Shown piece by piece: positions 33,635 through 63,695 of a stretch of DNA of 64,000 nt. This stretch comes from Methanobacteriota archaeon. GTDB lineage: Archaea > Thermoplasmatota > Poseidoniia > Poseidoniales > Thalassarchaeaceae. The first letter of the stretch is position 1, and every line of letters starts with the position of its first letter. The notes beneath the pieces are model-generated. The model was not told where the DNA came from. It was given only the letters and a program-made list of their open reading frames with translations, and ran no database searches. The stretch is taken from assembly GCA_002722595.1 (NCBI GenBank), contig PBMO01000024.1, positions 11,700 to 75,699 of the forward strand, in the 5' to 3' direction. The position numbers and the translations under genes were made by a program.

Positions 33635-33644
33635 AATCTCACCT

Positions 33645-46808: not shown

Positions 46809-46817
46809 ATATTCACC

Positions 46818-48539: not shown

Positions 48540-48547
48540 TGGATCAC

Positions 48548-49243
48548 CTAACTAACTGCTGTAATATCTACAATGAAGCCCATTCCAGGTTCCACACGCC
48601 AACCGATTCTTGGTTGAACAGGGCCCGCGGCTCTAAGAAAACGAGTAATGGCCATGGTTCTATTCAACCCCCCTCCAACTTCTCGAATGCGCATATCAAT
48701 CGCAACTTCGGCAGATGAAATTAGTGCCCTAACAACATCATCCTCCAATTCTTCAGGGTCGATAATTAACATCAAAGAACGACCTTCAGAACAATATTTT
48801 CGGAGAGAACTCAACAATTCCTCCGGACTTCCAGAATAGTGTTGAAGTATACTTGAAGCGCGATCAATTATTGCCATTTCAGCATCCTGTACAGGTTTTG
48901 AATCCAAAACATCTGCAATTTGCACAATGCCCTCCACTTCATCAGATACAACTCCAAACCTAGAGAGTAAAGTCAAAGATCCACTTTCTGTTGCATCAGT
49001 CATAGAATAGCCTAAACTGTCAACTTGTTCTAACCAACCACGAGTTGTCAATTCAGTACTAACAACGGTTAGGCGGGCCCCGTGATTGATTAGTCCGTAA
49101 GCAAATCTTTGAGAAATGAGACTTTTCCCTGCGCCCACTACACCTGTCACAATGTAAAGAGAGCGTTTTGGTAACAGCCTCCCTAAACTATCTGACAAAC
49201 TATCAGTTTCCAATTCGAACGGGAAACCATTTTCATCATCCAA
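48548..49243 (-). CDS. flaH: Archaellum protein FlaH/ArlH (RecA/KaiC-like ATP-binding)
   Basis: Walker A IVTGVVGAGKSLISQRF, about 230 aa, located between flaG and flaI. Confidence 0.8.
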   Translation of the reverse strand: MDDENGFPFELETDSLSDSLGRLLPKRSLYIVTGVVGAGKSLISQRFAYGLINHGARLTVVSTELTTRGWLEQVDSLGYSMTDATESGSLTLLSRFGVVSDEVEGIVQIADVLDSKPVQDAEMAIIDRASSILQHYSGSPEELLSSLRKYCSEGRSLMLIIDPEELEDDVVRALISSAEVAIDMRIREVGGGLNRTMAITRFLRAAGPVQPRIGWRVEPGMGFIVDITAVS

Positions 49244-49718
49244 TCCGAATCACCTCAGAGAACGCAAAAGTGCCCGAAACACCTCGATATTCCTCACTAC
49301 GAACTATGACAGTAAGGACCGTTTCATCACCAGAATTTAGAGTCAAACCCGTCGGACAAATACGTAATTCTAACACATTACCTTGAACCCAATCATTGGT
49401 TGAAGTCAACATTCTTCTATTCGAAATGGATGTATCGCTGCCATTTACAATCACCCCAATTTCACTATTTTTCAAAACCAATTTACCTGAGTTTTGTAGG
49501 TGTATAGTTAGATTGCAAGCAGTTTGATTCCAAGCCATATTCATAGGGTCACTGGTTAATGATGCCTTGGTCATAGTATCGGCTTCAACCTGAGTTTTAG
49601 ACGATTCAATCGAATTTGCAATACCTCCCCATGAGGCAATTAAGACACTTGCAGCAATACCAGCTGTAATTAGCCCAGTTATGAGCATCAACATCTCACT
49701 TGCACCACCATCTGCCAT
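49236..49718 (-). CDS. flaG: Archaellum protein FlaG/ArlG-like
   Basis: 160 aa with an N-terminal archaellin-like hydrophobic helix (LITGLITAGIAASVLIA), positioned after flaF. Confidence 0.55.
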   Translation of the reverse strand: MADGGASEMLMLITGLITAGIAASVLIASWGGIANSIESSKTQVEADTMTKASLTSDPMNMAWNQTACNLTIHLQNSGKLVLKNSEIGVIVNGSDTSISNRRMLTSTNDWVQGNVLELRICPTGLTLNSGDETVLTVIVRSEEYRGVSGTFAFSEVIRIG

Positions 49719-49727
49719 TTCATTCCC

Positions 49728-50168
49728 TCACACTATTGCAATCGCTGAAGATGCTCCCATTGCTGATACAAAGATTCGACTTGGAGAACCAAATCCAGTC
49801 CCACTAATTTGTATGTGCTGAATTTCTCCAGGGAATAACACCGATGTTGAATTGTGATGCTGACTTGCTTGGAAAGGAACCCCTCCATCTATGCTGAACC
49901 ACATGTCATCATAGTCTATGTTTTGATCACCAACATTTGTGATATTAACATGGATACTGACACCGTCTTCAGTAGCATTTATTGCTCTTAATTCCGGCTC
50001 TTGTATGGCCAAGTCATCTATCTCTGCAGCCATTTGGGTGCTTTCAGTGAGAGACATTGATGCCAATGCAAAGATGCCCAATAAAGCGGTGCCGACAATC
50101 ATAGCGGCTATACTTGTTGAACCACTCAGATTCAGGCCCCCTCCGAAGGAGCATTGGCCTGCCTCCAT
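49728..50168 (-). CDS. flaF: Archaellum protein FlaF/ArlF-like
   Basis: 146 aa, N-terminal TM AAMIVGTALLGIFALA, then a beta-rich domain. Operon position after the flaCDE-like gene. Confidence 0.55.
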   Translation of the reverse strand: MEAGQCSFGGGLNLSGSTSIAAMIVGTALLGIFALASMSLTESTQMAAEIDDLAIQEPELRAINATEDGVSIHVNITNVGDQNIDYDDMWFSIDGGVPFQASQHHNSTSVLFPGEIQHIQISGTGFGSPSRIFVSAMGASSAIAIV

Positions 50169-50947
50169 GCCCCAATCATGGCGTTAAACATCAACAATTC
50201 CCTGTGTGGGAGGTGTTCAGCAGCATTTTCATTAATGGCTGGATCTGCTAAATCAATTAGGCCTTTTAGAACCGCACATTCGTTTGTTGTAATCATTCCA
50301 CTCGCGGCGGCTTTGTCCACAAAAGATGTGGCGCTGGTTGAGGACAAATTGTCCAACAGAAGTGCTACAATTTCACTTGTTGTAATTGGTAAATTCTCTG
50401 TTAATGCACCAGGTCTCTGGTTAAGGAATGGATTTAATTCAGCAATTCGACTTTCATATAAATCGAGTAAATTTACATCAGTTTGTTGAACAACGTCAAC
50501 CTCAGGTTCAACATCACTTTCTTCACCCTCAGTTACAACTTCATCTTCATCAGTATCCATCGTGATAAGTTTGTCAGTTGGGATGGTGTAAGGCGTCCCT
50601 GCAATATCTTTCAATTGTGTGAGGCGTGCATCCATCATGGCCATGGTCGCTTCAATTCGATCGAATCTAGAATCCATTTTATCTTCCATTTCCTTGGTAT
50701 CGAAATTACCTTGCTTACCACTGCTATCTTGTGACATTGAATCAGCGGGCTCTAGCCCAGTGGCTCCAATCCGGGCTCTTGTCGGTGAAGGTGACAACGT
50801 CCACGCATCTTCTTCTATTGGGGTGGCATCTAGAGGTATTGTTGCAACATCAATCGAATGAGTGGCTAAACTTTCCAATCTCGATACCGCTTGCTCATCC
50901 GCAATATCGTCTTCGTTTTTACCGAATATTTTGTCGATAATGCTCAC
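50132..50947 (-). CDS. Archaellum accessory protein, FlaC/D/E-like (tentative)
   Basis: 271-aa acidic protein located between flaB and flaF, where euryarchaeal operons carry flaCDE. No strong motif support. Confidence 0.4.
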   Translation of the reverse strand: MSIIDKIFGKNEDDIADEQAVSRLESLATHSIDVATIPLDATPIEEDAWTLSPSPTRARIGATGLEPADSMSQDSSGKQGNFDTKEMEDKMDSRFDRIEATMAMMDARLTQLKDIAGTPYTIPTDKLITMDTDEDEVVTEGEESDVEPEVDVVQQTDVNLLDLYESRIAELNPFLNQRPGALTENLPITTSEIVALLLDNLSSTSATSFVDKAAASGMITTNECAVLKGLIDLADPAINENAAEHLPHRELLMFNAMIGAWRQANAPSEGA

Positions 50948-50994
50948 TCAGACACACTCCAATACCGCATCCTCCGAAGAGGACATATTCCACC

Positions 50995-51573
50995 TCAGAC
51001 AATTGATGATCCAGGGTTGACATCGTTGTAGTGAAGAGACGCATAGGTATCTCCTCCACCACTGATGAAGACCCGCATCTCTTGGTTGTCTCCAACTGAT
51101 GGCGTACAATCAACCGAAGTGTCAATTGGGACCAAGAAAGTCTCACCAGCATCAACTGTTGCACCCGTAGCATAAGCGGTACCATCGAGGTCCGTAGCAA
51201 CTCCATCAAAACCTCCCGCGTTAATTGATGCTGTTGTTGAACCATCATCGCACGCCATATGCCATTCCATTTCTGACAACGGTGTGGTATCTGAACCTGA
51301 ACTGAGCTGGACGATGATGGTAATTTCATCAGCAGTACCACCAGCAGCACTTTCTTCACTTACATAGGCGCCCTGGATCAGGATTTTTCCACCCAAATTA
51401 TCCTGGGTATCGTCGCCTGTTTTTTGCGCTCTTTGTTGCAATTCTTCAGCCGTCTTGATAATAATCGTCGAGGCTACGGCAGCCACTAAAATCAATGCGA
51501 TAAAAATAATCATTGCACCGATACCAATGGCACCTAAGTCATTCTTTTTGAGAGAGTATTCATCTTTGTTCAT
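50995..51573 (-). CDS. flaB: Archaellin (flagellin) FlaB/ArlB
   Basis: Class III signal peptide: basic KKNDLGA, then GIGAMIIFIALILVAAVAS. Length and Ser/Thr/Gly-rich beta region are typical of archaellins. First gene of the fla operon. Confidence 0.85.
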   Translation of the reverse strand: MNKDEYSLKKNDLGAIGIGAMIIFIALILVAAVASTIIIKTAEELQQRAQKTGDDTQDNLGGKILIQGAYVSEESAAGGTADEITIIVQLSSGSDTTPLSEMEWHMACDDGSTTASINAGGFDGVATDLDGTAYATGATVDAGETFLVPIDTSVDCTPSVGDNQEMRVFISGGGDTYASLHYNDVNPGSSIV

Positions 51574-51660: not shown

Positions 51661-52539
51661 TCATTTTTTCAATTCTAAATCGAGTGTAGATATTTCCACA
51701 GATTTCGGAGAAAGATATCGGAAAAATGGCCATGATTTACAAGACCATCCAGGGGGGACCCATGGGACCAACAAAACGTCATTCATCGCTTCGTCACTAG
51801 CGTTCTCAACACGACAAGTCATCCGCAAGCCATCTGGACGCAAATCATAACCAGTTTGAACATTCAATTTCTCCTGCAAACTCCCAGGTGCACCAAATTC
51901 ACGAATTGCAGCCATGGCTGAAGGAGTAATGATGAATACAAGATCCATTGATTCCCCAGGTTGTAATCGATCGACAGGTTGCGTGATTGGCAAGGCCCTC
52001 CAATTAGGAGGAACTGGAGCTTTGATATTGAACCCAGGAAGCACTACATTACTTGTGTTTTCAATCCTTACAAGCAATTGACCTTGATCAGAATTAGCCT
52101 CCCAGCGAGCTTCAACTCCCATCCAAAATTGGAAGAAAATGAATGGGTTCAGTGCTGCACTATTTGCCAAAAGGTGCTCAATAAGGCGCTCTAGTTGCAA
52201 TGCTGATTCATCAAAAGCACTGCGCATAATCAAAGTCTCTGCGGTTTTCATTGTAAGCAGAATATCAAGCAATTCATCTTCACTTGTTGCACGATCCCTC
52301 ATTAGAGAATGCAGCATGCGAATAGCCCTCTGCATTTTCCCAATGTGGCCACTTAGGACCCCAATATCTTCTCTTGCCTGTCGAATATTCTTCTTTGCGA
52401 AGCGAACATCTTTTTCTAGAATCGCCTCTTGAATCAATTGAATATGTTCATCTAAGACGAGATTCAATCGTGTAACCTGCGCTCGCAAGTCGGATTGGGT
52501 CGGCATCACGCCATCATACATTGCCTTCCACCTCCACAC
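51661..52539 (-). CDS. Hypothetical protein (292 aa), possible archaellum-associated or regulatory
   Basis: ORF directly upstream of flaB. Its start overlaps the stop of the upstream giant gene by 26 nt. No recognised motifs. Confidence 0.45.
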   Translation of the reverse strand: MWRWKAMYDGVMPTQSDLRAQVTRLNLVLDEHIQLIQEAILEKDVRFAKKNIRQAREDIGVLSGHIGKMQRAIRMLHSLMRDRATSEDELLDILLTMKTAETLIMRSAFDESALQLERLIEHLLANSAALNPFIFFQFWMGVEARWEANSDQGQLLVRIENTSNVVLPGFNIKAPVPPNWRALPITQPVDRLQPGESMDLVFIITPSAMAAIREFGAPGSLQEKLNVQTGYDLRPDGLRMTCRVENASDEAMNDVLLVPWVPPGWSCKSWPFFRYLSPKSVEISTLDLELKK

Positions 52540-55500
52540 TCACATCATGTGAGTCTCCCCATCGTTGTCCGATTGTAATTTTACGTAATTCCGTAGATGG
52601 ATTTCCAAGTTGTACAAGGAGCCCCCTAGCTTCTCCTTCAAAGTAAGTTAACTCTTCAAATATCTGATTCCATGAAGTGGTGCTATTACGAATAGTTAAT
52701 TCTACGGATAATGCACAAAGCATCAGATACAGGAAAATCGAACCGATGTTGGCTTCACCCCAGGAGATTTCATTTGGCAAGACTAGAACCATGAAGATAA
52801 ACCCTAATGGTGCAAGCGATAATTTGACTCGCAACTGATTGGCAACACGAATTATTTCACCTTCATGGTCTTCTACAAGATTACTACCTCCTCTCAGCAA
52901 ATTTTGCCTGTCAGATAGGATTGCTGGGAATTCATGTGATGCAGCACTCCGAGTAATTAGCGCCAACCAAATAATCGATGCAAAACTCATGACTATGTTT
53001 GGAATAGTTCCGAGACCATAATGGGTAGAAACACCGAGTAAAGCACATCCTGCATATGCACTCAGCATCAAAGACCTCTCATCCTCTCGAGACTTTCGCA
53101 ATAATTGACTACAAAGTAAGATTAAACCAAGTGTTATTGGAATCAATACCAACAATGGAGGTGACCATGAGTTCAGCGAGAAAGTCTCCCTCAGTGCATC
53201 ATCATCTGGTTGGTTACCATACATTTCAGTGGATTTAATGACAACATTACAGCTAACATCTTTTGATGTCTCCCACCAATTCAAAGCCCCAGTTTGAACA
53301 TTCCAATTGACGGATTTTATGCCACCCTTTCCTAATCCAGCAATTGATTGCTCTTCAGAACCCATAATTTCGATTCCATCCTCACATTCAATGACTGCAA
53401 CAGCATCATCTGGCAAAGTATTGTTTCCGTGATTCTTTATCATTGCACTCACTAGTCCACTGGTGGATTCTGATATCTCATCACCCATCTCAATATTCAC
53501 TGATAAGATGCCAGGATCAGCCCATGAATCAGAAATCACTCTGACATTGAATGAAGTGATATTGTTACCACCAGTACTTGGATGAATCAGATTAAAGTCA
53601 AGGGAATAACCATCACCTGGCGGTAAATTTTCAATCGCTGGCATTTTGATTCGCAAGCGAAGGGTACGATTCTCGCTTGAAGGGGTCGGTCCCAATAGAT
53701 AGGTTTCACCATTCAAATTCAGAACTTCTGGTTGGCCCCATGTAACTGGATCAATAGTAAATTCCCATTCAATATCCCCGGCTCCAACATACATACTTTC
53801 GTTGATGAATCTTTCAGAACCTACTAATTCTAGGACATATGAATCCATTTGGTCTCCGACAATGCCTTGTTCCAGAACATTTGTCCAAGGAATATCAATT
53901 GTGAAAGTATTGAAGACTTTATCGGGAACTGCGAGATATTCTCCTTCTGTCCAAATTCGTGCGATTTGCAACGTCGATTCTAAGTCTCGATCACCCAAAT
54001 CCTCCTCCAGTGGAGAGAACTTCAAATTGAGTTTTGTTTCCTCTAAATTCCATGCAGAGTCAGCAATATTTTGCACAGTGAAATGAATATTTCGCATCTC
54101 TCCCATGGGCAATGTAAGATTTTGTAGATCACAATCACTCACAAGCCAACGTGTGTCATCTCCAGTTGTGCAAATGACATCTAGTTGAACATCAAGATTA
54201 CCTCTATTGACCACTTCCACTGTAAAGTCCCTACTTTCATAGGGCCTGAGTTTGATGATATTTGGTGCATTCCAATCTACCTGGAAAACTGAGTCAGTTA
54301 AGAATTCAACATTCGCCCCCCCGACAGTCTGATTATCAGTAACATTAGTTGCCACCATATTGCCATAATTGATATCGCCAGACTCTAGATTGTCATTACC
54401 ACCAGCAGCAGGAACTCTGATTGACAAAGTGATACTTTTCGTTTCAGTACCGGCTGGTTCCAAGGTTAAATTCTCCGGCTCAATTCCGTAAACCCATTCA
54501 TCACTGCCCCCAATTATTCCAAATTCAAACTCAATAAATTCTACTAGGTTTCCATTGTTAGTTACATCAAATACCATTGAAAAGTTCTGCCCTGGAACTA
54601 CAGAGACACTTTCATCAAAACCGAAAGTGATGTTGTGGAATGGATTGACATTAATCTCCACCATGGTTTGGGCAACCAAATCACCATCATTGCTGAGTGT
54701 CACTCGTGCAGAGTGGTTGGTATCAGCCCGCGCGAATGGATTTGCTAAAATGTTGATTTCCACAGTCCTGTTTTCACCAGGTAGAAGAGTTATGGAAGAA
54801 CTCGATGCTACATTTACATCAATATGCTCCGAAAAACCTTCAACGCCAACATCGAACTGTTGTAAACTATTTCCGATATTTGTGACTAGTAGGGGCAATA
54901 ATTCCAATTGGTCGACACTCACGTTTGCAATAGCGTCTGTAGGCAAAAGTGTGGCTCCGACCAACTCTTGGATCTCAAATGGCAACAACTCCTGCGCAAT
55001 TATATTTCCAGACTCATCGATAACCTGCAATATTACATCAGAATCAGCATCCGCTCGATAATTTGGCGGAGCTGTTGCTGAGACAATAATTTGCTCAACA
55101 TTCTCGCTATTTATTATTGGAAATAAGTCGGAATTAGAAGGCACAGAGATCGAAGTTGTTGGCTGTGAAGAAACAGACCAACCCAATGGCCCCGATAAGA
55201 TGTAACTGAGATTACACTCATGGTTTCCGAGATTGACAATATTTACTGGAACGGAAGCCTCAACTTCGGGAGTAATTATTGTTGGAGATGGCACCTCAAT
55301 AGATGCCTTTGACACCTCAGGTATGTTCACTGTTAGGACAACTCTCGAAACAGGAGATTCGATTCCACTGAGTCCAGATACAATAGTCAGTGAAGCAGTC
55401 ACTTCGACTTCTAATTTACCTGCAACAGGGGGCACCCTTATACTATCGCTGCCAGGATCTGGAGACCCTAGATTTGCAACAATCATTTGCGTTGCTCCAA

Positions 55501-57295
55501 GACCCATAATAGAATTCTCAGGAGTAATTTCTGCACTCCACCTGTTTGCCTCATTTAGACCATTCCCGTTTCTTGTTGCTTCGAATGAAGATGGCGCAAT
55601 GTCCAAATCAACATTTACAGTTGTGCTTGGGTTTGTGATTAGATTGTGGCGCACTTGCATTTCTAATTCAACTGGATTCGCCCAGACTCGATTGTCAAAG
55701 ACATCAATTGCTGGCATGAAGAATTCAGTATTTTCAGCCATCAATTCAACCATGATTGTTGGTTGAACATGTAAGAAAGTATGTTGAATGTTCGGTTCAC
55801 CTCCGATTTCTGGAGAAACGTCAGTCCACAGACGCAAGGTATTCCCTTCGACCAATTTACTAGATGGATCTAGAGGTAGAGTTAGTTGTGGTGGCGTGAC
55901 TGTGATAGTCACAGTGATTTCTTCACCTACTGACATGTATGGAGTTGTACTCGGATGTGCAGTTACACTCCAACCTGGTGCTAATTGTGAGAATCCACAA
56001 TCAACTGTGAAAACAGCTGGAGAGGTTCCATTATTCTTCAAAATATATTGAATATTTTCGGCTTGACCCGGAGTGACATCGACATTCCAAGAACTATGAT
56101 TCAATGTGGCCTGTAACAAGTCACCCGCATAGACAAACGCAGTCGCATCCACAGAGTAACCCTCTGTTTGACTCGTAATCTGCAAATCGATTCTATCGAT
56201 TTCCGACCTGTTAGTATCTATTGGCAATTGCACATCCACAGATACCAAGTTAGAACCAAAACCGATGATGTTTATGAGCCCAAGAGTTACATTTGTACCC
56301 CAACCTTTCATAGAAATTACACTGTAATCGTATGTATCGGCAGCGCCTAAATTTTGCACGATGAATGTTAAAACGGCAGAATTTCCTGGTTCTACAGCCC
56401 TATCACTGGGTGCGAGAATCGCTGCCCTGTAATCGGAAAATACTGTATTTATTTGCAAACTTCGCACAATACTTTCAAACGACCAATATATTGTGATATC
56501 ACACGGCCCAGAGTCTACCAATGTAGAATTGATTGGGACTTGAATGTATTGATATTGAGATGGTTGACTAATGATATTCTCTGAGAGATTCAGTGAAGAA
56601 TAAGTAAACTCTGGACCATTGCAATCAGAAAGGTTTACCGCAAAATCAACAGTTGTTTCGGTATTTCCAAGATTTATTGACCCAATTTCCAGATCCCACA
56701 CTCCTAATGGCATACGAGCATCAATATCAGGAGCCTCAATTATTACATTCGCTTCTGAATCCACTGTGAATGTATCACTATTTTGGGCATTATTAGTAGA
56801 GTCGGAATCTTGGGAAGGAGACAGACCAGTCATGACAATTTCGACTCGGATGAATCCGACTTGTCCCAAAACAGCATCCCACTGAATAACACATTGTTGT
56901 TGAGAGTTGCCTAGAACTTCGTATGTAACAGAATCACATCCAATTCGATTGGCCATAACAGGATTCACTCCTTCAGTGATGATTATGTCAATAATTGCAG
57001 TATGAGCCCCATCATTTCGAATAGTCACCAGTATTTGTTGCATGCCATCTGACAGTTGGACTTCGCCGGTACTGGTGTCTAAAAAGGAGCCAGAAATCCA
57101 CTGTAAAGGTTCCACCATAATGTCAGTAGTAGGCGTATTTTTTGCAACATCCATTTGGTTATTCTCTTGTTCACTCAATTCTTGTGGAGGCACAATTGGC
57201 GATAGGATATGTACAAGCATCAATAAAACCAAAGCGAGACTCAACTTGCCCCTATAATTTTCAGAAAATATCCACCGATTCACCATTCCAATCAC
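52514..57295 (-). CDS. Giant surface protein (1593 aa) with signal peptide, many beta-sandwich (CARDB/Ig-like, tentative) repeats and a C-terminal cluster of ~5 TM helices
   Basis: N-terminal signal LSLALVLLMLVHILSP. Repeated ..V.V.N.GN.. beta-strand patterns with N-glycosylation-like N-x-S/T sequons throughout. C-terminal hydrophobic segments (LLVLIPITLGLILLCSQLL, IVMSFASIIWLALI, LGFIFMVLVLP, IGSIFLYLMLCALSV). Confidence 0.65.
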   Translation of the reverse strand: MIGMVNRWIFSENYRGKLSLALVLLMLVHILSPIVPPQELSEQENNQMDVAKNTPTTDIMVEPLQWISGSFLDTSTGEVQLSDGMQQILVTIRNDGAHTAIIDIIITEGVNPVMANRIGCDSVTYEVLGNSQQQCVIQWDAVLGQVGFIRVEIVMTGLSPSQDSDSTNNAQNSDTFTVDSEANVIIEAPDIDARMPLGVWDLEIGSINLGNTETTVDFAVNLSDCNGPEFTYSSLNLSENIISQPSQYQYIQVPINSTLVDSGPCDITIYWSFESIVRSLQINTVFSDYRAAILAPSDRAVEPGNSAVLTFIVQNLGAADTYDYSVISMKGWGTNVTLGLINIIGFGSNLVSVDVQLPIDTNRSEIDRIDLQITSQTEGYSVDATAFVYAGDLLQATLNHSSWNVDVTPGQAENIQYILKNNGTSPAVFTVDCGFSQLAPGWSVTAHPSTTPYMSVGEEITVTITVTPPQLTLPLDPSSKLVEGNTLRLWTDVSPEIGGEPNIQHTFLHVQPTIMVELMAENTEFFMPAIDVFDNRVWANPVELEMQVRHNLITNPSTTVNVDLDIAPSSFEATRNGNGLNEANRWSAEITPENSIMGLGATQMIVANLGSPDPGSDSIRVPPVAGKLEVEVTASLTIVSGLSGIESPVSRVVLTVNIPEVSKASIEVPSPTIITPEVEASVPVNIVNLGNHECNLSYILSGPLGWSVSSQPTTSISVPSNSDLFPIINSENVEQIIVSATAPPNYRADADSDVILQVIDESGNIIAQELLPFEIQELVGATLLPTDAIANVSVDQLELLPLLVTNIGNSLQQFDVGVEGFSEHIDVNVASSSSITLLPGENRTVEINILANPFARADTNHSARVTLSNDGDLVAQTMVEINVNPFHNITFGFDESVSVVPGQNFSMVFDVTNNGNLVEFIEFEFGIIGGSDEWVYGIEPENLTLEPAGTETKSITLSIRVPAAGGNDNLESGDINYGNMVATNVTDNQTVGGANVEFLTDSVFQVDWNAPNIIKLRPYESRDFTVEVVNRGNLDVQLDVICTTGDDTRWLVSDCDLQNLTLPMGEMRNIHFTVQNIADSAWNLEETKLNLKFSPLEEDLGDRDLESTLQIARIWTEGEYLAVPDKVFNTFTIDIPWTNVLEQGIVGDQMDSYVLELVGSERFINESMYVGAGDIEWEFTIDPVTWGQPEVLNLNGETYLLGPTPSSENRTLRLRIKMPAIENLPPGDGYSLDFNLIHPSTGGNNITSFNVRVISDSWADPGILSVNIEMGDEISESTSGLVSAMIKNHGNNTLPDDAVAVIECEDGIEIMGSEEQSIAGLGKGGIKSVNWNVQTGALNWWETSKDVSCNVVIKSTEMYGNQPDDDALRETFSLNSWSPPLLVLIPITLGLILLCSQLLRKSREDERSLMLSAYAGCALLGVSTHYGLGTIPNIVMSFASIIWLALITRSAASHEFPAILSDRQNLLRGGSNLVEDHEGEIIRVANQLRVKLSLAPLGFIFMVLVLPNEISWGEANIGSIFLYLMLCALSVELTIRNSTTSWNQIFEELTYFEGEARGLLVQLGNPSTELRKITIGQRWGDSHDVSVEVEGNV

Positions 57296-60200
57296 TCCAC
57301 CTTGAATTTAGTTACAAATTGTAACTTATTTGTTAGAGACATTTGAGCCTCATATTCTGAATGAGCACCCTTAGACAAAATTCTAATCCGACAATCTGAG
57401 ATGTCAACTCTTCTGAATGTCTGGTGCTCTTTGTAAAAATGGACATAGACGTAGTACGTTCCTTTTGGCGCTTTACCATTGCCCCAATAGACATTTTCAA
57501 CGGGGGTTTTGGACTCACCTTTTTGATTCATCTCGATATCCTGGACCCCTCCATCAGATGATTTTGGATTTCGTGGGTGAATAATTTCTTGACTTGGAGT
57601 TACAACAAGTATATTGAAATCATTTTTGTTATCCCAAAGTAATGAGATTTGAACATCTCCTCCCTTTGCACCACTTTCGTTTAATCTTTCATCGAATAGA
57701 TCATTTTTCCACTCATCTTGTGGTAAAGGCTGCAAACCTCCACGCTTGTAAGCCCCGTTTAGCGCCTTATGCAATCTCATTTGCTTATCTTTCTCGACCT
57801 CTTCTGGACTGAGTTCTTTCTGTAATGCCTTTCTTCGAGCTATCCGCATTCTCTGTAGAGTATCAGCATGTCGTTTGTCAATATCTTTGAAAACAATTGA
57901 TGATAACTGCGTCAATGATTTCGCATTCGAAATCTTTGATTTATAATTTTGAATCTTCTCTCTTTCCGCCTGTAACTCAGCCCGTTTCAAACCGCTCTCA
58001 ATTTGCTTTTGTCTCTTCGCTACAGCCTTGTCGATAACATTTACCACATCATCATTCAGATGAGCATATCTTACTGCAGATAATTCATCCAAAGATCGAG
58101 AATTTTCGATTACACGCATAATTTTTTCATATTCTGCTTTTTGTTTCGCCAAAGCCCGTTTCCTTGCTTTTTCTTTTAGTAATTCCACCGCTTTCTCGAT
58201 ATTTCTCTTTAGCATTACTTGATGAAGGGATGACAGATTTGGATCAATTTCCGGCATTTCACTAGGTTTCTTAGCGGCCTTCATTTGTTCCCGAAGTTGT
58301 TTGTATAGGAGGGCTTCTTCCTCCATCCTCGTTCTAAGTGTAGATGCATCCGGGACATCAATTGTTGCAATGACTTCTAATTTATCACCATAACTGGCTT
58401 GACCATTGTAGAGGTAATAATCGGCCCCCATTTTCACACGCAATATGTAATCAGTAGGATCGGATTTACGCCTCCCCCGATGTCTATTTCTGTGCCAGAT
58501 ACATGCGTAGTATTTACCAGCAGGTGGTGCTTTTCCAGCAGGCCAAACAACATTTTCCATCGCCGATTTCATTTGCGGTTTTGCATTCATTTCGAGGTCG
58601 AGTTTACCACCACAAGAAGATCGACGCTTCCCTCTATGGATAACATCTCCAGAAGGAGTTTTTATTATCAAATCGAGATCATTCATGTTGTCCCAAAGTA
58701 AACTGAATCTTAGGGCTCCATCAGCAGCCTGCAAAGTCTTTACGCGTGTTCGGAATTTCGACTCAGCTTCTATATTGAAATCAACATCAACAGGTTCCTT
58801 CTTCACTTTCTTGACAGCCTTCTCAACATATTCGATAACCCGCTCATCTTCCAATAATATCTCCAAAACCTGCGCTTGGATTTTTTCGAGTTCTTCTTGT
58901 TGTTCTTCGTTTACACCATCAATCACGACCGCCTCAACTTCAACAGATGTCTTCCCTCCCTCGATTTCCTTTCGAAGTTCCTCAAATCTTGCGGCTTGCT
59001 CACGCTCAATACGTTGTCTCTCTAATTCCTCTAGATAATCCAATCGTTCAAGACGGATATTTTCTAATTCTTGGCGTTGTTCTGCATTGACATTTTCCAA
59101 TCCAACATCAAGCAACTGCTCAATATCTTCGATACCAGATAGTAAACCTAGATAACTATTGTATTGCTCTTCGAATTTCTCCCGCTTTGCAATCTCAATC
59201 AACTCGTTTCTGCACTTCATGCGCAATTCTAACAACTCATCCCGCTGAACCTCATTAACACCTTCGATTTGTATTGCATCTAATTCAAGAACGTATTCAC
59301 AATCTAGGATTTCTACCCGCAATTCTGCATATACAAGATTTTCTCGTGCTATTGTAAACATTTCATTCAATTCTTTTTCCTGGATGGGATTGACACCATC
59401 TATGGTGATGGAATCCAACTCCTTGGAACTCTTAGCTGAGTCAATTAGTAGGCGCAACTCTTCAGCCCGAGCCTCTTCTTTCAGGTGCTTGACCCGCAAT
59501 TCAAGAACCGACATTCGCTTTTCACGCCGCTCTTCTAGTTCCGCCTTCATTTTGGTATTGACTCCAGTAAAGACCATCGCTTTGAGCTCGTCTTGATCCT
59601 CACAATCTAGTATCAAGTTTGACCATTCTTCAAATTTCTCCACCTCGCCACGTTGCCTTTCGATTTCCTTTAGACGAGAATAATAGAAATCATAGTGACT
59701 CTGCAACCTTTCTTCGGCTTCTTCACTGAGTCCACCCATGTCCAAGTTTTCAAGGTACGCAGTAGTCTGCGCCGCTTGTATCTCACGATACAGTTGTTCC
59801 TCTCTCCTAAGTATTTCGAGTTCGGACGACAATTCCCCGATATGTTTGTCAGCTTCCTGCAACTCCTGTAATTCTCTTTCGCTCATGGCTTCCATTTCTC
59901 GCCTTCGAACCCGTTGAATCTCATCTTCAAAGGACAACTGATAGAGGCGGTTGTAGATTTTCAGGAGAATCGCATGGCGATCATCAAGTTCGACCAGCGT
60001 TAAACCATCAACACTTAGAGATAACAACTCGAGTTCAGTTTCCGTGATATGCTTCTCACCCACGCCCCGAATCATTTCGATTAGTGAATTACACTCGAGA
60101 ATTTTTTCCACAGACCTTTCCCGAATTGAGTGCCTTTCCATCGCAGCACCTTTCAATCTCTCTATTTGGTCAATGACTTGCTCCTTTTCGACATCATCTT

Positions 60201-60456
60201 GACTAGTGTTTGTTTGTACATCAGTCTGGAATGGAACCATATCTTGCTCATAATCTACTCTTGGAACGATGAATGAAGATGTCCCTCCACCCCTCGGCCC
60301 CATGGTTTCCCCATCTACATCAATATCGTCCATAGCCAGAGCTCTAATGATGGACGAACCAGTTCGTTTCTTAGCACCCAGGTGAGTGGATGCTTGCCAA
60401 ACAAGAACAGCTGCGACAAGAGAAACAACAACCCAACCAATTGTTTGTTCCATCAT
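57292..60456 (-). CDS. Membrane-anchored coiled-coil protein (1054 aa) with two C-terminal YfaP/DUF2135-like modules
   Basis: N-terminal TM WVVVSLVAAVLVWQA. A long E/R/K/L-rich coiled coil carries periodic (I/V)DGVN(x)(E/I)Q..EL units. Two about 115-aa modules begin RFSLLWDNMNDLDL…SCGGKLDLEMN and QISLLWDNKNDFNIL…SDGGVQDIEMN. Confidence 0.7.
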   Translation of the reverse strand: MMEQTIGWVVVSLVAAVLVWQASTHLGAKKRTGSSIIRALAMDDIDVDGETMGPRGGGTSSFIVPRVDYEQDMVPFQTDVQTNTSQDDVEKEQVIDQIERLKGAAMERHSIRERSVEKILECNSLIEMIRGVGEKHITETELELLSLSVDGLTLVELDDRHAILLKIYNRLYQLSFEDEIQRVRRREMEAMSERELQELQEADKHIGELSSELEILRREEQLYREIQAAQTTAYLENLDMGGLSEEAEERLQSHYDFYYSRLKEIERQRGEVEKFEEWSNLILDCEDQDELKAMVFTGVNTKMKAELEERREKRMSVLELRVKHLKEEARAEELRLLIDSAKSSKELDSITIDGVNPIQEKELNEMFTIARENLVYAELRVEILDCEYVLELDAIQIEGVNEVQRDELLELRMKCRNELIEIAKREKFEEQYNSYLGLLSGIEDIEQLLDVGLENVNAEQRQELENIRLERLDYLEELERQRIEREQAARFEELRKEIEGGKTSVEVEAVVIDGVNEEQQEELEKIQAQVLEILLEDERVIEYVEKAVKKVKKEPVDVDFNIEAESKFRTRVKTLQAADGALRFSLLWDNMNDLDLIIKTPSGDVIHRGKRRSSCGGKLDLEMNAKPQMKSAMENVVWPAGKAPPAGKYYACIWHRNRHRGRRKSDPTDYILRVKMGADYYLYNGQASYGDKLEVIATIDVPDASTLRTRMEEEALLYKQLREQMKAAKKPSEMPEIDPNLSSLHQVMLKRNIEKAVELLKEKARKRALAKQKAEYEKIMRVIENSRSLDELSAVRYAHLNDDVVNVIDKAVAKRQKQIESGLKRAELQAEREKIQNYKSKISNAKSLTQLSSIVFKDIDKRHADTLQRMRIARRKALQKELSPEEVEKDKQMRLHKALNGAYKRGGLQPLPQDEWKNDLFDERLNESGAKGGDVQISLLWDNKNDFNILVVTPSQEIIHPRNPKSSDGGVQDIEMNQKGESKTPVENVYWGNGKAPKGTYYVYVHFYKEHQTFRRVDISDCRIRILSKGAHSEYEAQMSLTNKLQFVTKFKVE

Positions 60457-60905
60457 TCATCCTCCTGCTGATCAACACTTTCTTCTTCCTCAACATTGCG
60501 TTTGGGAGAACTTTGCACATGAACTGGCCTACCTTGCTTCAGGTATCTGGCAACTAAGGCATCAAGCATCCGTCTATGCACATCTTCTGAGATGCCCAAC
60601 TTCCGACGCTCATCCCACAACAATATCTGCTCAGTTTTTGAGAGAATTCCATCATCTAGGTAGACTTCAATTAGTCGACGATATGCATCCCGGTCGGATA
60701 AGGCATAAACTAACTGAGAACCATCGATTGAATCGGCACGGTGCTGAATTTGATTCCCCAAACTCACAGCTTCAGCATGAGTCATCTCTCTGCTGTCATA
60801 CCGAGATTGTATTTCATTAGCGATAGCCTGTAAACCGAGAATGGTCATTTCACGATTGATACGGCGTTGATATTTCCGGCCAACCCTCGTCATTCGCATG
60901 TTCAT
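60453..60905 (-). CDS. TerB-like domain protein
   Basis: SIDGSQLVYALSDRDAYRRLIEVYLDDGILSKTEQILLWDERRKLGISEDVHRRML gives two TerB-like helix pairs. It has 4-nt overlaps with both neighbouring genes. Confidence 0.5.
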   Translation of the reverse strand: MNMRMTRVGRKYQRRINREMTILGLQAIANEIQSRYDSREMTHAEAVSLGNQIQHRADSIDGSQLVYALSDRDAYRRLIEVYLDDGILSKTEQILLWDERRKLGISEDVHRRMLDALVARYLKQGRPVHVQSSPKRNVEEEESVDQQEDE

Positions 60906-61723
60906 GCCACCTCAAAAACACACACCAATCGAGGCGGTTCGTCATTCGTTATTTCTCCACGGTATTCGTTGGATTCATCTCCATTCTTAACCAGCACTCT
61001 ATATTCGGTGGAATCAACTTCTGCGTGCTGCTCGAAATGCTCAACAAAGACTTTGAATTCACCCTTTGGCACAGATTTTTCTGGCCAGAAGATATTTTCA
61101 ACAGGCTGCTCACTAGTGGGCGCTTCATTCATGTCAACATCTAATTGGCCCCCACATTTTGACAATTTGTTGTCAAAAGAGATACGCTCTCCCGATGGAC
61201 AAAGCACACTTAGGTCCAAGTCGTTTTGATTATCCCATATGAGGCTAACTTGAACTCCACCAGATTTGGCATTTTCTCTATCCAAACGAGCTTGAAAATC
61301 ATCATCATTTGTGCTACGTACTTCTTGACCACTAACTTCATCTAGAGCTGTAGAAGTTCTAACTCCACCTGTTTTTTGCTGCCACTCTTTCCCTATTTGC
61401 TTCAACAAATCTTCGGCATCTACATCTAACCTTTCAGTTGATATCGAATCATCCGGCGGAGCATTAACCGCCTCACCTTTCAATTCCGAAACCAGCTCTT
61501 CGGTTGCGGGACTAGGTTCAGGAGGCGGCTGATTCATTCGATTCAAGTCATCCTCCAATGCAAACCGATTCGGGCGTGGCTCCTCAACTTCCACAGCCGA
61601 AGAACGAACGCCACCAAGTCTACTTGCTTGCGCAGGGTTTTGTTCAGCAGTCAGAATCCTGTAAACTCCAAAGCCAAATAGTGTAGCAATGATGACGAAT
61701 AAAGCATATGATTCCATTGCCAT
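60902..61723 (-). CDS. Membrane-anchored protein (273 aa) with one YfaP/DUF2135-like module
   Basis: N-terminal TM ALFVIIATLFGFGVY. The C-terminal module QVSLIWDNQNDLDLSVLCPSGERISF…CGGQLDVDMN is homologous to the two modules of the 1054-aa protein. Confidence 0.65.
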   Translation of the reverse strand: MAMESYALFVIIATLFGFGVYRILTAEQNPAQASRLGGVRSSAVEVEEPRPNRFALEDDLNRMNQPPPEPSPATEELVSELKGEAVNAPPDDSISTERLDVDAEDLLKQIGKEWQQKTGGVRTSTALDEVSGQEVRSTNDDDFQARLDRENAKSGGVQVSLIWDNQNDLDLSVLCPSGERISFDNKLSKCGGQLDVDMNEAPTSEQPVENIFWPEKSVPKGEFKVFVEHFEQHAEVDSTEYRVLVKNGDESNEYRGEITNDEPPRLVCVFEVA

Positions 61724-61731
61724 AACCTCAC

Positions 61732-62709
61732 CTATACAACATCCGCCTCAAGAATAACCAGTGCCAGTGGAGTTACGCGATATTCCACGCGATTCTCAAT
61801 AAAGGTCCTCTTTACTAGGCCAAGAGCCTGCATTCTTCCAAGAACACCGCTTCGCATATGTGGCATAACTGAAGCACTCCAATCGGCCTTGGTCCCAGGT
61901 CCATACCTCCTATTGATGCGTGCAAGCAATGAGGTTGGTGTATTCGAACCAACATGTATGCCATCCAAAACGTGGCGCATGAATTTCCATTCACGCATCA
62001 TTTCAGTCCGAATTTGAGACAATACCAGAACCTGTTCATCTGCTGACAACGAAGGCCCTCTGTGATCTTCTTCATCAAGGACTGGATTGCTGAGGAGCGA
62101 GAAATTACGCCCCACTTCAGTAAATTGTACACGACCAATGTCAGAAATGCCAATCAATCCAAAATCAATCATTGCACCAGACGACTGTTCTGCATTCAAA
62201 CCACTCTTGCGAATGATATACTGATTCAGGAAGCGATTAATCGCAGCATCACTTGAGTTGGGGAAAGAGGCATGTAACCTATCACCACGTGGGCGAGCAT
62301 AATCTTCATCGATCATCCGTAAATAGTTCCGCAAAGAACCGACTCTATCCGACATTTCCTCTCTGAATTCTCTAATGGTTGGTCCGACGCCATCATCGTC
62401 AAGCAAAGACCACAGGACCCTACAACCAATTTTCAATGGCAATAGCCTGTTGATATGGCCTGACAAGGCACCACTTTGGAATGCCGAAACAGTTGCTTTT
62501 AGGGACAACCTTTCGGCAGAAAGCTGCAGCAATTTCAACTCATCCAGGGCTGGCTCACTGGTAAATGCAGCTTGGTTCGAAGACCTGTCTGCTGCTCGAC
62601 TTTCACTAAGTATGGCTCTGCAATATTCATCCACACTCATGCCGTGCCGTTCGGCATCTTCGATCAATTTAGCAACCAAAGCCGCTGGTAACGACAATGC
62701 GGCCTCCAT
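61732..62709 (-). CDS. Hypothetical protein (325 aa)
   Basis: First ORF of the tightly packed minus-strand gene string, 8 nt upstream of the next gene. No recognised motifs. Confidence 0.45.
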   Translation of the reverse strand: MEAALSLPAALVAKLIEDAERHGMSVDEYCRAILSESRAADRSSNQAAFTSEPALDELKLLQLSAERLSLKATVSAFQSGALSGHINRLLPLKIGCRVLWSLLDDDGVGPTIREFREEMSDRVGSLRNYLRMIDEDYARPRGDRLHASFPNSSDAAINRFLNQYIIRKSGLNAEQSSGAMIDFGLIGISDIGRVQFTEVGRNFSLLSNPVLDEEDHRGPSLSADEQVLVLSQIRTEMMREWKFMRHVLDGIHVGSNTPTSLLARINRRYGPGTKADWSASVMPHMRSGVLGRMQALGLVKRTFIENRVEYRVTPLALVILEADVV

Positions 62710-63005
62710 AGGAGGCTCCCTATTGAGCCGACTTATATTTATTCGTCTTTATTAGCGATTTTATCAATTAATTAGATTTAATTACAAATCAAAATTATGA
62801 ACAACCGTCCAAACGCCGATCCCACCACCGAAACAAGCTGTAAACGAACATTTTCTGGCATTTATTGTGGTGAAAAGAGTCCTGGGTGAAAGAAAAAAAC
62901 ACTCAAAGAGGGAAATATCAAATATATTGTAATAAATAGTAATTAATACAAAAATATAGATATATTCACTAATTTAGGTAGCCTTGGACCAGATATATTG
63001 ACGAC
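62710..63005. promoter_or_regulatory. Strongly AT-rich ~300-bp divergent intergenic region (divergent promoters; other roles not excluded)
   Basis: Sequences such as ttaattagatttaattacaaatcaaaattatg and aatatattgtaataaatagtaattaatacaaaaatatagatatattcac are much more AT-rich than the flanking coding DNA. The region lies between divergently oriented genes. Confidence 0.4.
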
Positions 63006-63695
63006 ATGAACGCCGCACGATTCCTCATGGACGAGGAACTCAGGCGGGTGCGCCAGAAATTGCTTGCCCTTTCCGAAAGAGCCCAACAAGAGGGCCACCC
63101 ACTCCGTTGGTTTGAGGAACTCTATACGGAGGCCAATCGAGACTCTGGTGAGATACCCTGGGCTGCCATGACCCCAAATATCGCAATGGTCGAGTGGTTA
63201 GCAAACAGGCCAGACATCACAGGCAAAGCATTGGTTGTAGGGTGTGGTTTGGGCGACGATGCTGAATGGCTTTCTGCCGTTGGTTTTGAAACCACAGCTT
63301 TCGATATATCTCCAAGTTGCATACAGTGGTGCAAGGATCGCTTTCCCAACACAAATGTCGAATACCGTGTTGAGAATCTCTTGGATCCACCCAGTGAGTG
63401 GAATGATATGTACGATTTAGTCGTTGAAATCCATATCCTTCAGGCCATACCAGATTCAATTCGAGACAGTGCAGCTAATCAATTACCTGGATTATTATCT
63501 TCAAATGGGCATTTATTGTGTATTGGGCGTCTCTCAACAAGCAATATCCCTGATGAACCACCTCCCCCTTGGCCACTAACTCGAACTTGGTTACAGAGCC
63601 GGTTTAATTCATTGACAAATATTGTATTCCGCAATTTTGTCAAGGAGGAAACACCCTCTATCGACAGATACATTGCAGTATGGACTAGAAATTAA
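63006..63695 (+). CDS. SAM-dependent methyltransferase (small, TPMT/Methyltransf_23-like)
   Basis: Motif I ALVVGCGLGDDAEWLS and a post-I acidic residue in TTAFDISP, then the motif II/III region YDLVVEIHILQAIP. Confidence 0.65.
   Translation: MNAARFLMDEELRRVRQKLLALSERAQQEGHPLRWFEELYTEANRDSGEIPWAAMTPNIAMVEWLANRPDITGKALVVGCGLGDDAEWLSAVGFETTAFDISPSCIQWCKDRFPNTNVEYRVENLLDPPSEWNDMYDLVVEIHILQAIPDSIRDSAANQLPGLLSSNGHLLCIGRLSTSNIPDEPPPPWPLTRTWLQSRFNSLTNIVFRNFVKEETPSIDRYIAVWTRN

Follow-up and report, generated by a model that had tools for sequence, protein, structure and literature searches.

What do the unannotated genes next to an archaellum cluster encode, and do they belong with it? Marine Group II (MGII) archaea are uncultured and count among the most abundant archaea of the surface ocean. 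Descriptions of their 'motility operon' do not go beyond the core Fla genes and the unannotated orthologous hypothetical genes that accompany them (PMC6336850). Swimming and adhesion are debated as the role of this operon, and no identifiable chemotaxis genes are known for the order (PMC6461757). How the archaellum is anchored in the S-layer-less Thermoplasmatales is likewise an open question (PMC12448462). The window analysed here, a stretch of 64,000 nucleotides from a Thalassarchaeaceae contig, carries an archaellum cluster and is rich in giant surface proteins.

The archaellum cluster (45015..51573, minus strand) encodes archaellin (50995-51573), an unannotated acidic 271-aa protein, a 146-aa protein, an ArlF/G-like 160-aa protein, ArlH, ArlI, and ArlJ, with Pfam matches to Arch_flagellin (1e-22 and 1.8e-7), KaiC (1.3e-10, ArlH), T2SSE (1.4e-34, ArlI), and T2SSF (2.6e-11, ArlJ). 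No recognisable ArlX or ArlC/D/E is found in the cluster of this lineage. It is preceded on the same strand by six closely packed genes, which encode proteins of 325 aa (61732..62709), 273 aa (60902..61723), 150 aa (probably 148 aa; 60453..60905), 1054 aa (57292..60456), 1593 aa (52514..57295), and 292 aa (51661..52539). Neither these block proteins nor the 271-aa protein match the Pfam FlaC or FlaD/E models at E ≤ 0.1 or any other archaellum-accessory family of Pfam, and the block has no match to such a family in NCBIfam. The original prediction had singled out the 273-, 150-, 1054-, and 1593-aa genes as a translationally coupled string followed directly by the archaellum operon. All four open reading frames exist on the minus strand and are packed as in an operon, but the 325-aa gene at the start of the unit and the 292-aa gene had been missed. 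The archaellum genes do follow, but only after the 292-aa gene and then an 87-nt gap with a TATA-like box in front of the archaellin gene.

The 325-aa and 273-aa genes are separated by an 8-nt gap containing GGTGAGG, and the next three junctions (273/150, 150/1054, and 1054/1593) are 4-nt ATGA/GTGA overlaps, provided that the first start codon is used. For the 150-aa gene, however, the orthologues favour a start two codons later (nt 60899), which leaves a 2-nt gap, and for the 1593-aa gene the ATG at 57286, which has a GGTGGAG Shine-Dalgarno-like site in front of it, is the more probable start. The 1593/292 junction is an overlap of 26 or 8 nt, the 292-aa start lying inside the end of the 1593-aa gene. 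Because divergent orthologous loci show gaps of 10-14 nt and 4-8 nt as well as overlaps, it is the tight packing that is kept and not the exact 4-nt overlap. All junctions from the 325-aa to the 292-aa gene are on one strand, are overlaps or gaps of 2-14 nt, and are conserved in orthologous loci. The six genes are predicted to form one transcription unit (ribbon-helix-helix protein, anchor, helical protein, anchor, surface protein, Ig-like protein). Upstream of the first gene lies an AT-rich intergenic region of 296 nt (62710..63005, minus strand) with TATA-like boxes, common to the block and a divergently transcribed methyltransferase gene; it is the probable promoter of the block.

Together, the 273-aa and 1054-aa proteins contain three homologous modules of about 125 aa: copy 1 at aa 149-273 of the 273-aa protein (60905..61279, minus strand; HMM i-E 8e-55), copy 2 at aa 569-701 of the 1054-aa protein (58354..58752, minus strand; 7e-48), and copy 3 at its aa 919-1054 (57295..57702, minus strand; 3e-56). 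A six-frame HMM scan of the window found exactly these three. Their proposed mutual homology is borne out by BLASTP (E 5e-26 and, for copy 2 against copy 1, 7e-24), with 34-37% identity and 26 invariant columns. Copy 3 has the most divergent motifs (DFNIL for DLDL and SDGG for CGG). Structure prediction with AF2, which had been suggested as a check, gives an eight-strand beta sandwich for copy 1 (pLDDT 94, pTM 0.88).

The guess that these modules are related to YfaP/DUF2135 was correct as to homology. A module profile built from 11 sequences aligns with residues 141-226 of E. coli YfaP, including its DLDLHV motif (hhalign 97.7%, E 1.7e-12), and Pfam DUF2135 (PF09906) matches 15 of 89 close relatives at E ≤ 1e-3 (best 7e-9). 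Three module matches carry the JGI label 'YfaP (DUF2135 family)', and the precomputed record of one relative (P0034) has a faint YfaP_C match. The window copies themselves, on the other hand, stay below the Pfam gathering threshold of 22 bits: copy 3 is the sole copy with a match (17.2 bits for the module by itself and 14.6 within the whole protein, covering 17 of the 48 profile positions), and copies 1 and 2 have none. With its 48 positions, the Pfam model represents just the C-terminal portion of the module; the complete DUF2135/YfaP domain is far longer. The three modules are thus beta sandwiches of the YfaP/DUF2135 superfamily, sharing W-D-x-D-x-x-DLDLHV, P-x-G, G-x-LD-x-D, and G-x-Y-x-V-x-x-Y with the C-terminal domain of YfaP. 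Their invariant acidic and Asn residues are kept across the 89 relatives and across homologues of 23-56% identity. YfaP carries a signal peptide, is encoded in a bacterial alpha-2-macroglobulin operon, and is extracytoplasmic, whereas the window modules occur in three copies in archaeal N-anchored proteins, alongside helical-repeat rods, and are predicted to be cytoplasmic.

Clustered at 50% identity, the family has 9,604 representatives, and no solved structure close to it was found. The same module is present in phrog_1735 and phrog_23228 (E 1.7e-27 and 2.6e-13), proteins of about 670 aa from rV5-like and other large phages. Altogether, 390 phage records match the module, with a best BFVD fold match at TM 0.75. 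These are proteins of bacterial viruses encoded among replication genes, and they differ from the window proteins in having no TM anchor or helical repeats as far as examined. The PPC domain (PF04151) resembles the module in size and in its all-beta sandwich, and the module of one relative (P0010) matches PPC weakly (E 0.002). That match is sub-threshold, the window modules have no PPC match, and the stronger PPC matches in relatives may represent separate domains. The YfaP/DUF2135 family spans bacteria, archaea, and about 390 phage genomes and probably sits on both sides of the membrane.

As originally predicted, the 273-aa and 1054-aa proteins each begin with one hydrophobic TM helix (residues 1-26 and 1-27, respectively). 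In the 273-aa protein, whose orthologues are 53-88% identical, the helix is followed by a conserved juxtamembrane motif, an acidic linker, and the single C-terminal module. The 1054-aa protein continues with a basic juxtamembrane cluster, a helical-repeat rod, module 2, a shorter rod, and the C-terminal module 3, an architecture conserved in homologues of 23-56% identity. Its first rod consists of seven repeats of about 55 aa (aa 131-556; 58789..60066, minus strand), recognised by alignment and each opening with s-x-x-ELD-x-I-x-I-x-GVN-x-x-Q-x-x-EL. Two more repeats between modules 2 and 3 (aa 785-895; 57772..58104, minus strand) were found by alignment and with a repeat HMM, which detects nine units in a 56% orthologue, two to seven in divergent homologues, and none in 120 shuffles. 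In the 1054-aa protein, at least nine helical repeats of 55 aa build a rod that modules interrupt and cap.

In all orthologues, the N-tail in front of the TM helix has 1-6 acidic or neutral residues and the helix is followed by KKR/GRRK or R..R..R; the same pattern is seen in 29 of 41 N-anchored relatives. The two module proteins contain 15.6% and 9.5% K+R and 0.28 and 0 sequons per 100 aa, similar to ArlH and ArlI. The surface proteins of the window have only 2.5-4.7% K+R, with 1.3-1.7 sequons in the three large ones. By the positive-inside rule and by composition, the modules of both proteins probably face the cytoplasm. As both proteins would be N-out/C-in anchors, their rods and modules are expected to lie at the cytoplasmic face of the membrane. 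Pointing the other way, YfaP has a signal peptide, and among module relatives with an internal TM helix the module is mostly predicted outside (23 vs 6).

The protein encoded between the two anchors, proposed to be TerB-like, has 150 aa, six helices, and a basic N-terminus, with no TM helix or signal peptide, and yields a confident six-helix AF2 model. It has no match in Pfam (up to an E-value of 10), NCBIfam, or the PDB sequences, TerB included. Its model has no TerB or other significant match among PDB folds. Its 77 homologues are unnamed or 'hypothetical', the organism-named ones coming from Thalassarchaeaceae or Thermoplasmatota, and none carries a precomputed Pfam domain. What does resemble TerB (PF05099) is a single hairpin of 48 aa (residues 73-120, A-Y-R-R-L-I-E-V-Y-L-D-D-G-I-L-S-x-T-E...L-G-I-S), which aligns with the TerB-type hairpin repeat of a Poseidoniales PadR-TerB protein (hhalign 76%, E 2.3e-5; HMM domain E 9e-6), a protein that itself passes the Pfam TerB threshold. 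A second matching half is lacking in the 150-aa protein, and the same kind of hairpin recurs in unrelated small ORFs of the window. The 'TerB-like' label is thus weak and comes down to this hairpin.

Among the remaining block proteins, the 1593-aa protein begins with a signal/anchor helix, continues as an ectodomain of about 1330 aa made of Ig-like repeats, and ends with four TM helices and a short tail on the cytoplasmic side. It matches Pfam NPCBM_assoc (4.6e-6) and NCBIfam choice-of-anchor T (7e-16, below cutoff), with 4.3% K+R, a pI of 4.1, and 1.4 sequons per 100 aa. The 292-aa protein is soluble, helical in its N-terminal half and Ig-like (adaptin-appendage/NPCBM_assoc-like) in its C-terminal half; its Pfam matches are weak, and its syntenic orthologues are 59-95% identical. 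The N-terminus of the 325-aa protein gives sub-threshold ribbon-helix-helix matches (Pfam FitA-like_RHH 0.0035 and NikA-like 0.014, NCBIfam MbpA 5e-4), which makes it a candidate DNA-binding regulator.

The order 325→273→150→1054→1593→292 aa→archaellin→ArlF/G-like→H→I is intact in 14 genome loci (50-94% identity) and in 4 long metagenome contigs. The block was found in the same order in 12 metagenome loci; the 4 of these contigs that reach far enough all carry the archaellum genes as well. The 325-aa gene is syntenic in all loci and is preceded by at least four unrelated gene sets, and the conserved unit therefore begins at this gene. Block and archaellum cluster are thus inherited as one unit in archaellum-bearing Thalassarchaeaceae (Marine Group IIb). 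The more general co-occurrence of the module with TerB and archaellum loci, for which a search had been proposed, was not found: the association is confined to this one lineage.

The best explanation at present, which we put forward tentatively and at somewhat less than even confidence, is that the block encodes a cytoplasmic scaffold close to the membrane and specific to this lineage, which would be co-expressed with a giant surface protein and would serve the archaellum or an adhesion apparatus. Both anchor proteins and the small basic 150-aa protein would form this scaffold, with the Asp/Asn/Glu cluster of the modules (DLD, LDxDxN, EN) binding a divalent cation, another small ligand, or a partner. 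Coupled to the polytopic 1593-aa and the 292-aa Ig-like proteins, it might anchor, position, or regulate the archaellum or adhesion machinery. The soluble, signal-less 150-aa partner and the presence of the module in phage proteins among replication genes speak for the cytoplasmic orientation. Against this reading, the acidic 271-aa gene occupies the usual ArlC/D/E position and may already fill a scaffold role, and common descent could account for part of the synteny, which lies within a single family. Under a possible though rather doubtful alternative, Poseidoniales would use the 1054-aa and 273-aa proteins in a general membrane skeleton or for housekeeping, for instance to shape the cell, organise the membrane, or tether a cytoplasmic partner, and their genes would stand next to the archaellum cluster of this lineage by historical accident, with no functional tie to motility. 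Homologues of the 1054-aa protein with the same TM/helical-repeat/two-module architecture (23-31% identity) indeed lie amid PfkB kinase, archease, CcmE, DHODH, topoisomerase, or peptidase genes, with no archaellum genes within 10 kb, and because of these the 1054-aa family is not intrinsically archaellar. About 68 other module loci likewise lack archaellum genes within 10 kb, and in other archaea small N-anchored module proteins occur as scattered single genes. The 150-aa, 1593-aa, and 292-aa genes, however, were found in the archaellum-linked block only, and the position and packing of the block were kept while its proteins diverged to 36-60% identity and the upstream flank was replaced at least four times.

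If the rods and modules were extracellular, they could form a fibrous anchored stalk that presents beta-sandwich binding domains for adhesion to particles or cells, together with the 1593-aa protein and the archaellum. Such a stalk would fit the classical signal peptide of YfaP, the many relatives that join the module to PPC, C-type lectin, VWA, NPCBM, or P-domain or to an internal TM helix with outside prediction, the proposal that MGII archaella are adhesive (PMC6461757), and the abundance of giant surface proteins in the window. It is quite unlikely, given that all orthologues lack a basic n-region ahead of the TM helix and have a strongly basic stretch behind it, that K+R is 3-6 times that of the organism's genuine surface proteins with sequons almost absent, and that the 150-aa protein translated along with them is soluble and signal-less. 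A Ter-like complex for envelope stress or metal sensing, with a TerB protein acting alongside the membrane-anchored module proteins, is very unlikely. In its favour are the hairpin alignment, the conserved acidic cluster of the modules, which could bind metal, and, in one other lineage, the position of the PadR-TerB gene 2-3 kb upstream of the homologue of the 1054-aa protein. The 150-aa protein, however, has neither a TerB HMM match at any threshold tried nor the TerB fold, small units of this hairpin kind are common in the genome, and neither TerC nor TerD nor any other Ter gene is present in the block. No observation connects the block with stress, and with modules predicted to be cytoplasmic the envelope-stress or sensing complex of the original prediction finds no support.

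The scaffold reading has a more far-reaching form, which we consider improbable: a hitherto unrecognised trans-envelope platform that anchors the archaellum in an S-layer-poor lineage of Thermoplasmatota, in which membrane-tethered cytoplasmic rods with cation-binding YfaP-type tips would be coupled to a giant polytopic surface protein, as a counterpart of the ArlX rings or of the euryarchaeal polar cap/stator anchor. In Crenarchaeota, FlaX (ArlX) is a TM-anchored ring scaffold, and the ring binds FlaI and FlaH (PMC5019145, PMC5517150). The 1054-aa protein has an ArlX-like layout in an arl cluster that is without recognisable ArlC/D/E: an N-terminal anchor (aa 1-27) with a basic C-flank, a long helical rod predicted to be cytoplasmic, and a gene fixed upstream of arl. 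No sequence similarity to ArlX was seen with the Pfam and NCBIfam models, and the 1054-aa protein differs from ArlX in its beta-sandwich modules and in having homologues outside archaellum clusters. It is also several times the size of ArlX.

The hypothetical genes of the MGII motility operon hereby gain an anatomy, consisting of a candidate regulator, two tethered module proteins predicted to be cytoplasmic, a helical partner, a giant surface protein, and an Ig-like protein, and the boundary of the unit is now defined. Should the block be an accessory complex of the archaellum, it would bear on how the archaellum is anchored in S-layer-less Thermoplasmatota and on what replaces ArlX or ArlCDE. 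The function of YfaP was still unassigned in 2025 (PMC12356324), and an anchoring platform, if true, would provide the first cellular role for the very large DUF2135/YfaP family.

The three modules lie in a block of six genes that forms an unbroken minus-strand ORF string heading the archaellum (arl) cluster. It starts with an RHH protein of 325 aa (61732-62709, minus strand), followed by proteins of 273 aa (60902-61723, minus) and 1054 aa (57292-60456, minus), each opening with a single hydrophobic helix, and, encoded between these two, a 150-aa protein without such a helix (60453-60905, minus). The 1593-aa protein that comes next (52514-57295, minus) has a helix at its N-terminus and four more at its C-terminus, and the last gene of the block encodes a 292-aa Ig-like protein (51661-52539, minus). 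When ORFs are called from the first start codon, the 273/150, 150/1054, and 1054/1593 junctions are the 4-nt overlaps that had been described originally, and the 8-nt gap between the 325- and 273-aa genes contains the motif GGTGAGG. Alignment with orthologues, however, probably places the start of the 150-aa gene at nt 60899, that of the 1593-aa gene at the ATG at 57286, and that of the 292-aa gene at the ATG at 52521, which would reduce its overlap with the 1593-aa gene to 8 nt. In divergent loci the junctions are still very short (10-14 nt and 4-8 nt), so that the proposed operon is upheld by the same-strand string and its short junctions, whereas the exact overlaps are tied to the first-start-codon calls. 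Space for promoters is restricted to a 296-nt AT-rich region 5' of the 325-aa gene and an 87-nt gap before the archaellin gene, and TATA-like boxes are found in both. A scan for sigma-70 promoters and intrinsic terminators gave the same counts as shuffled sequence; being a bacterial scan, it is not applicable to an archaeon and is uninformative.

The archaellum genes do follow the four genes originally described, but not directly, as the 292-aa gene and the 87-nt gap intervene. The archaellin gene (50995-51573, minus; Pfam Arch_flagellin, 1e-22) is followed by genes for an acidic 271-aa protein (50132-50947, minus; pI 4.1), a 146-aa protein, an ArlF/G-like 160-aa protein (Arch_flagellin, 1.8e-7), ArlH (KaiC-like), ArlI (T2SSE, 1.4e-34), and ArlJ (T2SSF). 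The 271-aa protein, encoded between archaellin and the ArlF/G-like genes, has no family match and is kept in every syntenic locus at 46-86% identity. In euryarchaeal clusters, this position is occupied by ArlC/D/E. The last gene, directly after arlJ with a 12-nt gap, encodes an MscS-type mechanosensitive channel (43647-45002, minus). Downstream of the cluster, three giant proteins are encoded on the minus strand (30098-43616): one of 1509 aa with RCC1 repeats and ephrin-receptor-like domains, one of 1790 aa with RCC1, thrombospondin type 3, He_PIG, and EF-hand domains, and one of 1178 aa with a C-terminal SAP domain. The 1509- and 1790-aa proteins have the composition of surface proteins (2.5-4.7% K+R, 2-4% Cys).

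Twenty related genome loci were retrieved, all from Poseidoniales MAGs that are mostly labelled Thalassarchaeaceae (MGIIb), the closest being UBA602 at 94% identity. The order 325, 273, 150, 1054, 1593, 292, archaellin, 271, 146, 160, ArlH, ArlI is identical in every locus with enough flank, at protein identities of 36 to 95% across the syntenic genome loci. Metagenomes yielded a further 12 loci with this type and content, including one that matches the window at 100% identity. What lies 5' of the 325-aa gene differs, with at least four unrelated gene sets across the loci. Since the gene order is fixed and this flank is variable, the conserved unit begins at the 325-aa gene and continues into the archaellum cluster. 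By ORF clustering, the two closest loci (L001 and L002, 92-94%) appear to have, upstream of position 8587, about 3 kb with four extra ORFs separating the methyltransferase gene from the 325-aa gene, where the window has only the 296-nt spacer (62710-63005); this difference at the block boundary may reflect an insertion or a deletion. At the window edge, a 90-aa ORF (63692-63964, minus) is the C-terminal part of a protein of about 1130 aa that is complete in L001-L003.

The homology of the three modules was confirmed far beyond chance: the C-terminal 125 aa of the 273-aa protein match two segments of the 1054-aa protein with BLASTP E-values of 5e-26 and 7e-24 (34-37% identity, 26 invariant columns), and a module HMM run on all six frames of the window recovers exactly three copies. 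Their sole Pfam match is to DUF2135, in the third copy, where 17 of the 48 model positions are covered at 17.2 bits, below the cutoff of 22. When all proteins of the block were scanned against Pfam and NCBIfam, the matches were likewise only sub-threshold or generic Ig-like. DUF2135 is matched, however, by 15 of 89 close relatives (best 7e-9), and the module profile aligns to residues 141-226 of E. coli YfaP, including the DLDLHV motif, with an hhalign probability of 97.7% (E 1.7e-12). The assignment to YfaP/DUF2135 made in the original prediction was therefore correct, and the Pfam model spans just the C-terminal third of a domain of about 125 residues. An exhaustive HMMER search with an 11-sequence module profile returned 9,604 cluster representatives at E<=1e-3, with 5,900 left at the stricter E<=1e-10, and up to 22 copies in some proteins. 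Others of the 89 relatives contain PPC, GYF_2, VWA, C-type lectin, NPCBM, zinc-ribbon, EF-hand, or HEAT domains. The family is known already, though uncharacterised; a literature search for DUF2135 found no papers, and YfaP is listed as a functionally unassigned hypothetical protein (PMC12356324).

AlphaFold2 models the module as a confident eight-strand beta sandwich (pLDDT 94, pTM 0.88). Foldseek found no PDB match at E<=1e-3, and a search of PDB sequences with the module profile found nothing; weak Foldseek matches to MmpS5, DUF4425, PLAT, and C2 were set aside as generic sandwiches. In the viral structure library BFVD, the matches are exclusively uncharacterised phage proteins of about 700 aa (TM 0.75), and the module matches phrog_1735 (1.7e-27) and phrog_23228 and is present in 390 phage records. 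In Klebsiella phage KpS11, a 676-aa "DUF2135 domain-containing protein" in which Pfam finds no domain is encoded beside a DNA polymerase gene (positions 2726-4756 of the phage locus L112). Module proteins of about 670 aa (phrog_1735) occur in large enterobacterial, Caulobacter, and other phages, where their genes lie among replication genes; in some records they are labelled "DNA-directed RNA polymerase". The motifs L-x-W, D-x-D-L, P, G-x-L-D-x-D-x-N, E-N-x-x-W, and G are near-invariant across relatives, and the same residues remain unchanged even in those homologues of the 1054-aa protein that are only 23% identical. The resulting Asp/Asn/Glu cluster suggests a candidate cation or ligand site.

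In the 1054-aa protein, seven helical repeats of about 55 aa lie between the anchor and the first module and two more between the modules, each beginning with s-x-x-ELD-x-I-x-I-x-GVN-x-x-Q-x-x-EL. A repeat HMM built on the window's units finds nine in a 56% identical orthologue and between two and seven in divergent homologues; in 120 shuffles it finds none. Four divergent clusters of proteins of about 1040-1090 aa carry two modules at nearly the same positions (around 550-700 and at the C-terminus) and form one conserved Poseidoniales family with the 1054-aa protein.

In all orthologues of both anchor proteins, the N-terminal tail is only 1-6 residues long, acidic or neutral, and lacks the basic n-region of a signal peptide, and the helix is followed by a basic flank (KKR/GRRK in the 1054-aa protein, R..R..R in the 273-aa protein). 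By the positive-inside rule, an N-out/C-in orientation is predicted for both. Among the closest relatives, the same charge pattern is seen in 29 of the 41 that have an extreme N-terminal helix; in relatives with an internal helix, the module is mostly predicted outside (23 vs 6). Clear surface proteins of this uncultured organism contain 2.5-4.7% K+R at a pI of about 4.05, and the three large ones have 1.3-1.7 N-x-S/T sequons per 100 aa. The 1054- and 273-aa proteins, at 15.6% and 9.5% K+R and 0.28 and 0 sequons per 100 aa, resemble ArlH and ArlI. Taken together, the flank charges, the composition, the soluble 150-aa protein encoded between the two anchor proteins, and the phage copies among replication genes lead to the prediction that the modules are most probably cytoplasmic. 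YfaP carries a signal peptide, so the domain seems able to function at both faces of the membrane. The N-terminus of the 1054-aa protein (60376-60456) and its orthologues have, where the hydrophobic helix begins, a conserved G or S just ahead of Y/W (M-x-T-M-I-G|Y-A-I-V); a class III (prepilin-like) signal peptide was rejected because the acidic leader and the basic residues after the helix are the reverse of pilins.

The 150-aa protein had been called TerB-like, which was not borne out for the protein as a whole. It has no Pfam or NCBIfam match even at E 10, an exact-sequence lookup gave no match, and none of its 77 homologues, all unnamed or "hypothetical", has a Pfam domain; those with a named organism come from Thalassarchaeaceae or Thermoplasmatota. 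AlphaFold2 yields a confident six-helix protein (pLDDT 85), for which Foldseek found nothing in the PDB at E<=1e-3 and no TerB entry among the matches. Profile matches to Tic110, SIKE1, and YggX among PDB sequences were at chance level, and PADLOC gave no defence family beyond a marginal PDC-S48 match on the hairpin (E 0.0012), on which ground a role in defence was discarded. Residues 73-120 are similar to the repeats found in a PadR-wHTH protein of Poseidoniales whose score exceeds the Pfam TerB threshold (33.9 bits). The same "DG-I-xxxE...LGIS" hairpin occurs in two adjacent ORFs of 171 and 156 aa (26943-27458 and 27459-27929, plus strand), which are unrelated and carry it C-terminally in one and N-terminally in the other. 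The hairpin is a recurrent small unit of this genome, and for the 150-aa protein the most fitting description is a small helical protein with a single TerB-type hairpin rather than a TerB protein.

Outside this block, neither TerB nor archaellum genes generally accompany the module in the metagenome and genome loci. Divergent homologues of the 1054-aa protein, at 23-31% identity, are embedded in housekeeping genes and have no archaellum gene within 10 kb; one group neighbours PfkB kinase, archease, CcmE, DHODH, and topoisomerase genes, and a second, on a 1.86-Mb contig, is surrounded by peptidases and a tRNA-synthetase-like gene. N-anchored module proteins of smaller size occur singly amid archaeal housekeeping genes. 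The metagenome loci number 80, of which about 68 do not belong to the window type; these have no homologue of the 150-, 1593-, or 292-aa protein and no arl gene nearby. A PadR-like winged helix is combined with three TerB-type repeats (Pfam TerB, 4e-8) in a 319-aa protein encoded 2-3 kb upstream of the large homologue in one other lineage only (L020, 5423-6382; L022, 7445-8404; also L050 and L051); there, PfkB kinase and archease genes lie between it and the gene for the 1082-1087-aa homologue. Because of these out-of-context homologues, singletons, and arl-free loci, the link between module and archaellum is specific to this block and not general. The same homologues are what favours the main rival reading, a general membrane-skeleton role of the large protein whose position here is historical, which we consider somewhat less likely than the accessory-unit reading given below. 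An extracellular adhesion stalk is improbable, the modules being predicted on the cytoplasmic side, and the envelope-stress complex originally proposed is not supported, a Ter-like stress system being the least probable of these readings for a block whose TerB resemblance is confined to one hairpin.

The best supported reading, which we hold tentatively, is that the block serves the archaellum/adhesion apparatus as an accessory unit specific to this lineage. Both anchor proteins would join the 150-aa protein in a membrane-proximal cytoplasmic scaffold whose modules would bind a cation or a partner, the polytopic 1593-aa surface protein and the 292-aa Ig-like protein would link this scaffold to the outside, and the 325-aa RHH protein may regulate the block. 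Crenarchaeota possess a TM-anchored FlaX ring, and Euryarchaeota combine FlaC/D/E with a compositionally undefined polar cap (PMC5019145, PMC5517150); a literature search for ArlX with coiled-coil found no papers. In Thermoplasmatales without an S-layer, archaellum anchoring is unresolved (PMC12448462). MGII lack identifiable chemotaxis genes (PMC6461757), and the published description of their motility operon lists core Fla genes together with orthologous genes that lack annotation (PMC6336850). The fixed place of the block at the head of the archaellum cluster is a new observation, as is the architecture of an N-anchored helical-repeat rod, predicted to be cytoplasmic, that bears YfaP-type sandwiches.
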